Assembly (NCBI GenBank): GCA_038087875.1
Contig: CM075989.1
Span: 9,302,001-9,366,000, forward strand
Origin: Malacoraja senta
Taxonomy: Eukaryota
Direction of reading: 5' to 3'
DNA: 64,000 bases
Both the position numbers and the translations under genes were made by a program. The notes beneath the pieces were generated by a model. It did no database searches and was not told the origin of the DNA. It worked only from the letters and a program-made list of their open reading frames with translations. Positions 44,530 to 51,075 of this stretch are shown here, piece by piece. Numbering within the stretch: position 1 is the first letter of the stretch; each line of letters opens with the position of its first letter.

Positions 44530-46923
44530 GTGCTGGCTCTCTATCTGGGATTTTGGGAATTGTAAAATATATTTTTAGATTCTTTGTCATGCTGATATTT
44601 TATGATATATTTTAATGAATCCATGTGATGGTTGGGGAGCTAGGCCTTGTAACCTATATGCACACGTGTCATGTAGATAGAGCAGCTGCATTGGTAAAGT
44701 TAGGGTGATCTTGGTTCTGGAGTCGGTGACATAGATTGTCCTGCAGATTAATTCTGCTCCAGTGGGAAGATTGTTGGAAATGAGATGCAGTGCTGAAGTG
44801 AGAAAGTTTGTCTGACATAGTTCTCGGTGATAGACACAAAATGCTGGAGTAACTCAGCGGGACATGCAGCATCTCTGGAGAAAAAGAATGGGTGACGTTT
44901 TGGGACGAGACCCTTTTTCTGGACCTTCCCCTCCCCCACTCCCCAAAATTAAAAAGTCCCATCATTTGCCCTAGTTAGAATCTATGTAAATTCCACTTGA
45001 ATCTGTATGCCGTAACTTGCGTTCATTTGTTAGCAATCGGAGGGGAAGATAGTTTTAAAAAACAAAACAATGCCATCAGCATATTCGAATCGTATCTAGT
45101 GTGTCTTTCATGTGGAAATGTTTTCTTGCTCTAACAAGCTTCAAATATTTTTGTTTGAAAGAGAATCTGTCCCCTCATAATCTTAAAAGCAGAATGCATG
45201 CACATACCTGTATTTGTGCGTTTGTTTCTGTAACATTTGAAAATTCCAGAACGTTTTCCTCTTAATTCATTGAATATTTCTACTGGGAAATAAGTATTGC
45301 TGCTATTACATGTTCAGATTCTGGGATGAGGTGTTGAAAGGTGATTTGTTTTGGGTCTATTTTTGTCAGTAGAAAGAATGGCTGTTATTTCAAATCAATT
45401 TTAGTTTTTTTTGTTGATATTTTGTTTTTTTTGTTTTTTAAGCATAGTAAATATGGTTCACAAAAGTTTCAGACCAAAATAAATCTTTACATTTTTAATA
45501 CGAGGCATGATGCTGCTAAATTTAAAATCAGTTGTGTCCTGCAGATAGGAAATGTGTGAATATATACAGTGCAATCTGTTTTCATGTTGGTTAACTACTG
45601 TTTTGGAATTGAACCAAAATCTATAACACTGCAATTTGACAGTGCTGGTGAATTACATCGGGGATTAACTTTGCGAATGTAAATGAGGCCCAAGAGATTA
45701 ATCTAACATCATTAATATAGTTGTTTGCTTCCAGAAATGAATACTGCATTATTACATTTTGAAAAAAGCTTATTTTCCTTATTTAACTGTCAGCTTCATT
45801 TAAGCCTATCTTTTATATTTTTTTTAAAAGGTTAATGCTGTATTAAGCCTATTATTATGTTGATAATATATACCGTGAAGCTTTAAATAGTCCTGACTAG
45901 TTAATTTTTACAGCCGTGGATCACCATTATTTACTGAATTGTTTGGTGTAGTAATTTTAATTTAATTAGAATTATGGAAAGAAAATGTGTTTATTTGGTT
46001 GACTATGTTTAAAATCTGTTCAAATATCTCTTTAGGTGGTCAAAGTACAGTTGTGGGAGAATGTTATCAAGCAATCTAAAAACATTCTGTATTTTCACTC
46101 TTTTAGCTGTCTTTCCAATTTTCTTTTCTGAAAATATGGATTGATTCTTGTGGATAAGTTCCCATCACTACTCGGTCCCCAGCCATCTTGGCCAAGGGGC
46201 TGGAATGCATTTGACTGTTCTAATTTTACTGAATTGAATCGCCATAATACCCAGATAATGACCCCTTTTGGAAACATTATGGGCCCCTTTTTTGTTTAAT
46301 GCGCTTTCCCTTGAGTCACAGCTCATTGTTTCTGTTTTTGCTGTTGTTAAAATGTTTAATAAATGAACAATTTTTCACTTGTTTATAAAGAAACTGTTTA
46401 TTGGGTTTGACCTACTGATTTTTAATCCTTTACTGAAGGTCCACGGACCTAATAGTCTGCTGGAAACAAACATCTTAAGCTATTTATATAATGGCCATTT
46501 CTCTTCTGAGGTCAGAGGTAATTGAACTAATGTTCAATTCCATTTGCAATTCTTTGAAGAAAGACAAAGCCTGTTATTGTTGTGTAGCAACACCTGACTA
46601 ACATTCAGATATGCTTTTAAGTAGTAGTGATCATCAGCAAGAAAATGTAACCAAGTACTTTTAAACAGCATTACTATTAGTGAATCCCTCGTAATTTTGG
46701 ATGTCACCATTAACCAGACACTTCAGCATCAACAAAAAACGTTGATACATAAATATCGTGATTCTAAGAACAGATAAAAAGCCAGGTACCATATGGCTAT
46801 TATGAAAGAGGAGGTATTGGTGGTTTTAAAGTGCTTTAACATGGATATATCGCCCAGGCCTGACCAAGTACACCCTCTAACCTCTGGGAAGCTAGGAGGA
46901 AATTGAGGGCCCTTGCAGCAATA

Positions 46924-48089
46924 AGTGAGTTCGGTATTCCGACTGCTCATGCGCATGCCCAGGTCATAGGTCATTCGCAATAAACAGTCTCGGCAACGGT
47001 GGTGCTGCATTGTGTGCAGGCTTGCGTTTCGTCCGTGTTCGGGGTCGGGCCCAGCTCAGTCGCTGCCGTTGAGTTGGTGCTGGGCCGTCCCCTGTCCGGA
47101 TGTCCTGGGCTGGTGGAGCGGCCACGGATTTGCAGCCGGCGTTGCAGCCGCTGGCTCTAGCTCAGCTCTGCCTGTTCCGTCGGGTTGGCCATCAGACCTC
47201 CACCGCCACCCCCTCCCCTCAGTCCGACACCAAGATCCTGCTGAAGATGGGCAGCCGCCGGCCCTGCTCGAAGACGGGCGACTCGGAGCCTCTGCTGCTG
47301 GAATCGTCCTGGTCAGAGAGAGAGTCTGCAGACAGGCTCCTGCCGGCCATGGGCAGGCCGGCCACCCGCTGGAGCTGCTGGTGTTGTTGGTGATGGTGGT
47401 GCTGGCGGCAGCCTCCCTTGCCCACCCCTAAGCCCAGAGTCCGGGCCAGCTCCAACTCCAGGTCAGGGCTGAAGGCTGCCCGCTGCGCGGCCCAGTCGAG
47501 CGCCGGGCTGGAGGAGGCTGAGCCCAGGCTGGCGCTCTGGTGCAGGCTAGACCGGGACCCTTGCTCCTCCTCAGGGTTGTGGATGAAGTGTCAGCGGGTT
47601 GGAGAGTGGTTGGGCTGGAGTTGGCACTTCTTCTCTGCGCTGGCTGTGGGTCAGGGGCCGCTGGTGTCGTTGGTCCGGGGCTGTCGGTTGGCCCGGCGCG
47701 AGAGGCAGCGGTGAGCTGGGGTTGGCACTTCTCCGCGCTGCCTGGGGGATGGTGTCCCATCGGTCCGGATGTCTCCAGCCACTCGAGTGGGGGGCGGGGG
47801 ACGGGACGGGACAGTCCAGTGGCGGTTCGGCAGCGCTTGCCGTGCCGGGGACACGGGTTCCATCCTGGCTGCGGATGAGGCGCGGTTTTGTGTGCGTGCA
47901 GCTGCCAAGAGCCGGTGCAGTCACCCCCCCCCCCCCCGGTCTGCCCCCTCTATCTGCCCCCTGACAAATACAAACTTGAAAAAAGATATACTCACTGTAT
48001 CTACAGCGCTTCGTTCGATTTCTCTTTCTAGCGTTTGACCTTTGACAAATCCCATGATTCCTTGCATTTTTAGGAATACCGAACTCGCT
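46924..48089. mobile_element. Non-autonomous TIR DNA transposon carrying a host-gene fragment (Pack-TIR-like), inserted in an old CR1
   Basis: 17-bp TIRs AG(T/C)GAGTTCGGTATTCC (46924-46940, 48073-48089); removing the element and one TA restores in-frame CR1 LAAIFATSLA. Confidence 0.82.
47219..47599 (-). pseudogene. ZFP36/tristetraprolin-family C-terminal fragment (end of second CCCH finger to stop)
   Basis: TR*HFIHNPEEE (RCHFIHN with Cys to stop)...SLSADSLSDQDDSSSRGSESPVFEQGRRLPIFSRILVSD*; the HNP, SPVFE and RIxVS residues are closest to ZFP36 itself. Confidence 0.88.
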
Positions 48090-48115
48090 TATTTGCAACA
48101 TCTTTAGCCAATGTT

Positions 48116-49035: not shown

Positions 49036-49335
49036 TCTATATTGTCATAAAACTCTGATCTTGGATGTTTACTTGTTTGTTTACTTGTGTGTCATTCACA
49101 TCTCCTCGAAAGCCTGACGTGCGAACGGTGAAATTTTTACATATTCCGGAAGTGATTTACCTCATGATCTTGAAATCGCCTCATCTGAAAATTTGATTCA
49201 TTATTTCTTGATTTTTTTAATTAAAATTGTTCACAAACCTGAGATCTATTTTGAAGTTAATGAGCTGAAGCTTTCAAGCTGATGACGTCACAATGCCTCT
49301 GCTCCTCGTGGCCAGTTGCGCAGAGTTCTCAACGC
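49036..49335 (+). mobile_element. Possible non-autonomous Helitron-like 5' end preceding the pyrimidine array
   Basis: A|TCTATAT...TAAAA start followed by a gttt-type microsatellite; no CTAG/hairpin 3' end found. Confidence 0.3.
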
Positions 49336-51075
49336 CCCCTCTTCCTCTCCCCCCCCCTCTTCCTCTCCCCCCTCTTCCTCTCCCCCCCTCTTCCTCTCCC
49401 CCCTCTTCCTCTCCCCCCCCTCTTCCTCTCCCCCCCCTCTTCCTCTCCCCCCCCTCTTCCTCTCCCCCCTCTCGTCGCCCCCCCCTCTGCCTCGCCCCCC
49501 CCTCTTCCTCTCCCCCCCTCTTCCTCTCCCCCCCCTCTTCCTCTCTCCCCCCTCTTCTCTCCTCTCTCCCCCCTCTTCCTCTCCCCCCTCTTCCTCTCCC
49601 CCCTCTTCCTCTCCCCCTCTTCTCTCCCCCCTCTTCCTCTCCCCCCTCTTCTCTCCCCCTCTCCTCTCCCCCCTCTTCCTCTCCCCCCTCTTCCTCTCCC
49701 CCCTCTTCCTCTCCCCCCCTCTTCCTCTCCCCCCCTCTTCCTCTCCCCCCTCTTCCTCTCCCCCCCTCTTCCTCTCCCCCCCTCTTCCTCTCCCCCCCCT
49801 TCCTCTCCCCCCCTCTTCCTCTCCCCCCCTCTTCCTCTCCCCCCCTCTTCCTCTCCCCCCTCTTCCTCTCCCCCCTCTTCCTCTCCCCCCCTCTTCCTCT
49901 CCCCCCCTCTTCCTCTCCCCCCCTCTTCCTCTCCCCCCCTCTTCCTCTCCCCCCTCTTCCTCTCCCCCCCTCTTCCTCTCCCCCCCTCTTCCTCTCCCCC
50001 CCTCTTCCTCTCCCCCCCTCTTCCTCTCTCCCCCCTCTTCCTCTCCCCCCCCTCTTCCTCTCCCCCCCTCTTCCTCTCCCCCCCTCTTCCTCTCCCCCCC
50101 TCTTCCTCTTCCCCCCCTCTTCTTCTTCCCCCCCTCTTCTTCTTCCCCCCCTCTTCTTCTTCCCCCCGCTCTTCTTCTTCCCCCCCTTCTTCTTCCCCCC
50201 CTCTTCTTCTTCCCCCCCTCTTCTTCTTCCCCCCCTCTTCTTCTTCCCCCCCCTCTTCTTCTTCCCCCCCTCTTCTTCTTCCCCCCCTCTTCTTCTTCCC
50301 CCCCCTCTTCTCTTCCCCCCCTCTTCTTCTTCCCCCCCCTCTTCTTCTTCCCCCCCTCTTCTTCTTCCCCCCCTCTTCTTCTTCCCCCCCTCTTCTTCTT
50401 CCCCCCTCTTCTTCTTCCCCCCCTCTTCTTCTTCCCCCCCTCTTCTTCTTCCCCCCTCTTCTTCTTCCCCCCTCTTCTTCTTCCCCCCTCTCTCTCTCCC
50501 CCCCCTCTCTCTCTCTCTCTCCCCCCCCCCTCTCTCTCTTCCCCCCCCTCTCCTCTCCCCTCCTCTCTCTCTCCCCCCCCCTCCTCTCTCTCTCCCCCCT
50601 TCCTCTCTCTCCCCCCTCCTCTCTCTCTCCCCCCTCCTCTCTCCCCCTCCTCTCTCTCCCCCCTCCTCTCTCTCTCCCCCCTCCTCTCTCTCTCCCCCCC
50701 TCCTCTCTCTCCCCCCCCTCCCTCCCCCCCCCCCCCCCCCCCCCCCTCCTCCCCCCCCCCCCCCCCCTCCCCCCCCCCCCTCCCCCCCCCTCCCCCCCCC
50801 CCTCCTCCACCCCCCCCCTCTCTCTCCCCCCCTCCTCTCTCTCCCCCCCTCCTCTCTCCCCCTCCTCTCCCCCTCCTCTCTCCCCCTCCTCTCTCCCCTC
50901 CTCTCTCCCCCTCCTCTCTCCCCCCTCCTCTCTCCCCCCCTCCTTCTCTCTCTCCCCCTCCTCTCTCTCCCCCCTCTTCTCTCTCCCCCCCCACCTCTCT
51001 CTCCCCCCTTCCCCTCTTCCCCCCCCTCTCACCTCCTCTCTCCCCCTCTGCCCCCCCCCCCACCCACCTCCACCT
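49336..51075. repeat. ~1.7-kb polypyrimidine/polypurine minisatellite
   Basis: Units C(5-7)TCTTCCTCT, then C(6-8)TCTTCTTCTT, then C(n)TCCTCTCT and poly-C. Confidence 0.97.

Follow-up and report, generated by a model that had tools for sequence, protein, structure and literature searches.

Probable multicopy Pack-TIR family on an ISL2EU transposon carrying part of a ZFP36-family gene in a skate

Results

The window, by which we mean the whole 64,000-nucleotide stretch of skate DNA analysed, contains an element at 46923-48090, where an inverted repeat pair surrounds a GC-rich stretch of ~1.17 kb. The parts of the element and its flanks are as follows.

46790..46922, + strand: remnant of an old CR1 LINE on the left side of the insertion (74-84% to CR1 paralogues)
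46921..46922: left AT target-site duplication (TSD), with an A beside it at 46920 (family empty-site test)
46923..46940, + strand: left terminal inverted repeat (TIR), AAGTGAGTTCGGTATTCC, 17/18 to the right TIR
46923..47033, + strand: left end common to the autonomous ISL2EU copies L160 and L163 (77% over 116 columns to L160)
47034..47197, + strand: GC-rich backbone arm (matches L057 and L080)
47198..47599, - strand: captured piece of a third ZFP36 paralogue (match to the donor, L085 = G000:C3041)
47599..47600: copy-specific 152-bp deletion (global alignment to carrier L006)
47600..47982, + strand: right GC-rich backbone, part of which repeats the left arm in inverted orientation
47983..48090, + strand: right end common to the autonomous copies (84% over 107 bp to L160), with the right TIR at 48073-48090
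48091..48092: right AT target-site duplication, then T
48091..48112, + strand: continuation of the CR1 fragment, followed by the start of a high-copy SINE-like repeat

The initial annotation had placed this element at 46924-48089, with 17-bp TIRs agreeing at 16/17 positions. The element is real, but each end was 1 bp short: the true ends are AAGCGAG...CTCGCTT and the TIRs agree at 17/18 positions. The TIR pair, GC-rich interior, ZFP36-type translation, 11-bp direct repeat and absence of poly-A all lie where they had been reported. The interior has a GC content of 0.63-0.70 compared to ~0.35 in the flanks, and the minus-strand reading does hold the end of CCCH finger 2, a C-terminus with the motif RRLPIFSRI and a stop codon at 47219-47221. 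RRLPIF is the CNOT1-binding motif of ZFP36-family proteins. The ZFP36 segment, given earlier as 47219-47599, is present, but the cargo extends over 47198-47599 and includes ~20 nt of 3' UTR. Its finger-side junction is missing from the window copy, as the 152-bp deletion took the 5' capture junction along with half of finger 1 and the greater part of finger 2; a gap of ~140 bp at 47599/47600 separates this copy from most others. Pfam recognised no family in the window's own 122-aa piece. The finger region of a fuller copy matched ZFP36L2 and tristetraprolin structures in the PDB (E ~1e-19), and the ZFP36 identity of the cargo is based on this match and on that to the donor (80% identity including gaps, 8.5% substitutions).

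The direct repeat, GTCCGGATGTC, is present at 47094-47104 and 47763-47773. It was rejected as the capture junction, since it lies at least ~90 bp from the cargo and the breakpoint microhomologies are CT and CGGC. Near matches to it were found in only 4/20 non-ZFP36 members, which makes it no more than a variable motif of the backbone. Further along the window, 49300-51000 is a long simple-repeat tract of C and T only.

The window element belongs to a non-autonomous ISL2EU/IS4EU (PHIS) family of the skate, of which it is one decayed copy. That the host is a skate agrees with the nearest named relatives, which are from Rhinoraja (75%) and Leucoraja (97%). A 22-nt pattern from the family TIR had 616 exact matches in the genome, compared to 0 for the reversed pattern, so that the TIR pair does recur elsewhere, as the initial annotation had proposed to check. 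A DNA search of the same genome returned 2643 first-look candidates, and the 40 that were scored all cover the ZFP36 part. Among loci chosen by TIR alone only a minority hold ZFP36; the others share the ends but have different mosaic interiors, and the backbone arm at 47034..47197 is also found in members without ZFP36. Copies with and without the captured piece thus exist between the same termini.

The bases outside AGCGAG are strongly AATA across 90 distinct insertions, many of which were selected with ATA in the search pattern. The TSD was determined from 17 insertions inside other repeats that have empty paralogous sites. AT was duplicated at A|AT|T in 13/17, and from these tests the element begins AAG; the remaining offsets were -3 at two sites, -5 at one and -2 at one, the window site itself. 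The left flank of the window element (46921..46922) also fits a TA or TSD-less reading, at this site alone. The earlier proposal that removing the element and one TA restores the CR1 frame is therefore locally right, as this site is the single -2 exception and CR1 paralogues read GCAGAGATATTTGCA, but the TSD of the family is AT, a reading that the initial annotation had listed as an alternative. The window CR1 has probably lost 2 bp. The termini had been said to fit no superfamily clearly; they can now be assigned to ISL2EU/IS4EU, for which the A|AT|T target is described as the signature (PMC4482050, in its account of this group). The same account has ISL2EU TIRs starting usually, not obligatorily, with GG, and the family TIR, beginning AAG, departs from that usage.

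A transposase-coding partner, also proposed earlier, was looked for by a genome YqaJ search, which gave 32 places; YqaJ/DDE regions were widened to 10 kb to check for TIRs. Two loci proved to lie between family TIRs with AT flanks: L160 (4691 bp) and L163 (5400 bp). Both encode THAP and HTH_Tnp_4 domains on one strand and a YqaJ/alkaline exonuclease on the other (PF01771 in L160, PF09588 in L163), with all ORFs broken. The DDE_Tnp_4 core is found in the same-family copies L158 and L156, which have 83-89% DNA identity to L160/L163. No single TIR-bounded copy has THAP, DDE and YqaJ all intact, which counts against our reading, as do the window offset and the three sites at -3 or -5. The autonomous copies are ~3-6% from their common ancestor, like the ZFP36 carriers, suggesting one period of activity.

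Two other candidate partners were rejected. L063, a TIR pair 5 kb apart, proved to be a ZFP36 carrier lengthened by a CR1 insertion, and an intact two-ORF element on C341 has no family TIR in the region examined and a transposase only ~38% identical. L152 (G000:C341, ~14.7-17.9 kb), with the related L154 and L155, represents a second ISL2EU-type family, possibly younger, whose long, open, convergent ORFs encode 551 aa (YqaJ+PHD) and 413 aa (HTH+DDE); its ends were not found. L156 (4151-5731; G000:C4, ~41.095-41.097 Mb) retains an uninterrupted 527-aa THAP-HTH-DDE transposase ORF of the same family as the window element, beside a broken YqaJ ORF and with another member of the family inserted into its left end. 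This transposase matches a little-skate protein at 512/527 residues (next best, oyster, 54%), and its domestication is unsupported, the 0-fold and 4-fold rates on its branch being similar. Four YqaJ ORFs of 420-588 aa lie at ~20-kb spacing at G000:C8 25.29-25.36 Mb (L092-L094, L120). At least 150 scored DDE_Tnp_4 matches (L125-L151), many with open frames of 440-480 aa and identical scores, form a young Harbinger-like family.

Alignment to the ZFP36-family loci, another check proposed at the outset, identified the donor as a third ZFP36 paralogue, L085 on C3041, and not as ZFP36L1 or ZFP36L2, which gave short weak matches only. L085 has an intron acceptor, the N-terminus, a complete finger 1 and an ordinary, non-transposon 3' UTR, and is distinct from the two Tis11B_N genes. 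Its relatives carry the names ZFP36-like, L1-like or L2-like. Pfam recognised no neighbour gene among 100/167 ORFs on the contig. Relative to the transposon copies and the full-length related protein P0002, L085:1585-1770 has two compensating 1-bp indels, which are likely assembly errors, since the carrier consensus and P0002 both lack them.

Full-length carriers match L085 from 1553 to 2145, from mid finger 1 to ~24 nt past the stop, so the captured stretch is a 593-bp internal piece of the donor's last exon. The cargo is flanked by the TIR element on both sides, and the parental copy is not linked to the element: a scan of 40 kb of C3041 found no family TIR. Short microhomologies shared by the donor and the cargo-free backbone mark the 3' junction (CT) and the 5' junction (CGGC); at 2 and 4 bp they are short and may be due to chance, which is a point against our reading. 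The ZFP36 piece was captured once and then amplified. These results support the earlier claim that a TIR element captured part of the last ZFP36 exon at the DNA level.

Amplification as a family had also been suggested, and a 20-mer across the capture junction gave 110 exact matches compared to 0 for its reversed control, with both element ends present at 26 of the 30 junction loci examined. With detection rates of 18/33 and 8/15, these matches correspond to an estimated ~200 copies. The family therefore has more than 100 and likely ~200 ZFP36 carriers, counts that include some segmental duplicates (e.g. L008/L010, L013/L014 and L060/L061). Carriers are dispersed over many contigs with different flanks, indicating independent insertions after the capture. 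The consensus of 33 carriers departs from the donor at 17/531 sites, and the copies lie on average 6.4% from this consensus. A tree of 43 carriers and the donor was star-like and poorly resolved. Most carriers share an 11-bp frameshift in finger 2, and the copies without this deletion are mostly nearest the donor. In three carriers (L044, L051 and L077) little of the cargo remains, and a segment from the interior of the autonomous left end has been added.

Coding potential was assessed on 59 carriers. Read by column majority, the backbone supplies a junction ATG in frame to the donor stop, so that the product of the first carrier would have been ~174 aa long and comprised one whole finger plus the tail. 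Today 9/59 are open from ATG to stop, each with internal deletions or compensating frameshifts, and none has finger 2 plus tail in frame. Non-CpG substitutions amount to 5.4% at 0-fold and 5.6% at 4-fold sites, and 15-17% of CpG sites are changed. The carriers thus behave as neutral relics that, to judge from the CpG loss, were methylated.

Contigs from the runs of four organisms all cover the ZFP36 piece at a depth far above that of unique flanks. This depth is not a copy number, but it shows amplification of the family beyond this assembly. In organisms B-D, the contigs covering the left flank reach 16-23 nt into the element, under the threshold of 31 letters, and are only a hint that these organisms share the window insertion. 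No orthologous empty site was found among the contigs of the organisms compared.

The initial annotation had also suggested a search for other cargo. Three sister subfamilies likely hold other host DNA; for each the candidate donor is a single TIR-less locus among the 20-30 loci examined. Cargo 2 (L070 type) has 249 candidates, with the TIR in 19 of the 20 examined. The one locus without a TIR, L211 on C22, has the 320-bp cargo 2 in surroundings that are not transposon; a GTAAG splice-donor motif is present, as is the beginning of a repeat whose continuation is found at L211 alone. A PYRIN-domain exon lies 6 kb downstream. One cargo-2 insertion has apparently been duplicated together with its flanks (L204-L210, L202/L203). 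The flank of L205 resembles what we take to be a leucine-rich-repeat exon, which suggests an immune gene cluster. On C2460, three TIR-less occurrences of cargo 3 (L062 type; 54 candidates) neighbour the Ig V-set and C1-set exons of a light-chain cluster. Cargo 4 (L041/L068 type; 34 candidates) has its candidate donor at L291, where ~130 bp with three TGA(G/C)TCA motifs lie upstream of a TATA-like box and no backbone is present. TGA(G/C)TCA is presumably the AP-1 consensus. No downstream gene was recognised among ORFs of at least 90 aa within ~20 kb. The apparent immune and stress theme comprises four cases and was noticed after the fact. Within the element, cargoes 2-4 are often repeated locally in inverted orientation, a pattern expected of template switching.

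Discussion

Collectively, these results make it very probable that the window element belongs to a multicopy Pack-TIR family built on an ISL2EU transposon, of which the donor, backbone and partner are identified and whose ZFP36 copies were amplified after a single capture. A master copy would have taken up 593 bp of the ZFP36-family gene once, likely through microhomology-guided template switching during DNA repair, by either gap filling or fork stalling and template switching. Spread was likely driven in trans by the THAP-DDE transposase of autonomous copies with common ends. The three other cargoes may have arisen in the same way. More speculatively, the YqaJ exonuclease of the element could favour capture by resecting broken ends.

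The cargo could instead have come from RNA, as a ZFP36 retrocopy or cDNA-templated patch that landed in a MITE and was later amplified. The ZFP36 cargo is purely exonic, falling within one exon, so an RNA template is possible for this cargo alone; CR1/LINE reverse transcriptases abound in the genome, and amplification of a retrocopy within a transposon is known from bat Helitrons (PMC4224331, in its Helitron examples). We nevertheless consider this origin improbable. The cargo breaks off ~24 nt beyond the stop, short of the end of the donor 3' UTR; the poly-A tail is indeed absent, as first noted, and no TSD of its own surrounds the cargo; and backbone sequence was replaced, with microhomology at both ends. 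The sister cargoes include a splice donor with intron, non-coding DNA and promoter-like DNA, none of which could have come from mRNA. A TA-duplicating Tc1/mariner-like or unclassified MITE would explain why removal of AG...CT and one TA restores the CR1 paralogue length at the window site (offset -2), but the AT duplication at 13/17 sites and the ISL2EU-type proteins encoded by elements with the same ends leave this identity barely credible.

It is scarcely more plausible that the carriers are a selected functional family whose product, a 174-aa truncated ZFP36 that retains one whole finger as well as the CNOT1-binding tail, acts as a decoy. The backbone ATG, in frame to the donor stop when the 59 carriers are read by column majority, would fit such a role. 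Against it stand the equal change rates at 0-fold and 4-fold sites, the 11-bp finger-2 frameshift in most copies, and the fact that the nine open carriers are deleted or frameshift-compensated, with finger 2 and tail in frame in none. Judged from their sequences, the ZFP36 copies are neutral and no function is indicated. A broader proposal is that the ISL2EU family is a Pack-MULE-like shuttle that, helped by YqaJ, repeatedly captured stress and immune DNA from a ZFP36 exon, the 5' region of a PYRIN gene, an Ig light-chain cluster and an AP-1 promoter module, and whose hundreds of copies now serve as regulatory modules or antisense/decoy regulators. This is unlikely, though less so than the preceding alternatives; if it were true, the scattered copies could act on ZFP36-dependent mRNA decay as antisense/decoy regulators, or as regulatory modules.

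On the preferred reading, single capture by an ISL2EU-based Pack-TIR, plant-style gene capture by a transposon, rarely documented in vertebrates, was followed by amplification of two orders of magnitude and repeated for several cargoes. As donor, empty backbone, carriers and autonomous partner occur in one genome, the capture mechanism is testable, including gap filling against fork stalling and a possible role of YqaJ. The findings extend ISL2EU to cartilaginous fish; the relevant section of PMC9179366 reports no ISL2EU in elephant shark. They also mean that hundreds of ZFP36-like fragments in skate genomes can mislead annotation and read mapping. Our literature search, of incomplete coverage, returned no report of gene capture by the ISL2EU group, of ZFP36 with a transposon in skate, of skate ISL2EU or of cartilaginous tristetraprolin pseudogenes.

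The family resembles the ISL2EU/IS4EU group of PHIS, as characterised in the pertinent parts of PMC4482050 and PMC9179366, in its A|AT|T target, AT duplication, autonomous size of ~4.8 kb, and THAP/HTH/DDE transposase with a YqaJ ORF. It differs from the usual members in that its TIR starts AAG rather than GG (PMC4482050). With the multicopy Pack-TIRs of animals described in the main text of Tan et al. 2021 (PMC8277862), such as Pack-hAT-N8_XT and Ssk-FB4, it shares a host fragment within a TIR element, an unlinked donor, short junction microhomology, later transposition with distinct TSDs and GC-rich cargo. By that account TIR-mediated captures in animals are nearly always single-copy: 4 of 370 Pack-TIRs from 100 genomes are multicopy, the examples having 3-5 copies, and most are hAT and Tc1/mariner. 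The words 'Harbinger' and 'shark' are absent from its main text, and its supplements may list more cases. The skate family is unlike these examples in having at least 110 and ~200 copies, an ISL2EU base and several cargo subfamilies.

Plant Pack-MULE/Pack-TYPE elements, as summarised in the same main text (PMC8277862), are likewise non-autonomous, with constant ends, mosaic interiors and recurrent capture of GC-rich genic DNA followed by amplification. The skate family is distinguished from plant Pack-MULEs by its vertebrate host, PHIS transposase, 2-bp TSD and short TIRs. Bat Helitrons such as HelibatN3/NUBPL, as presented in the sections of PMC4224331 on gene capture, also carry promoter, exon and intron pieces at high copy in a vertebrate, but are rolling-circle elements without TIRs or TSD. 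Their copy numbers, up to a thousand or more, are a precedent for high-copy capture in vertebrates. The skate family is a multicopy Pack-TIR and thus of a known kind, in a superfamily for which we found no report of capture and at a copy number far above that of the animal Pack-TIR cases in the main text of PMC8277862.
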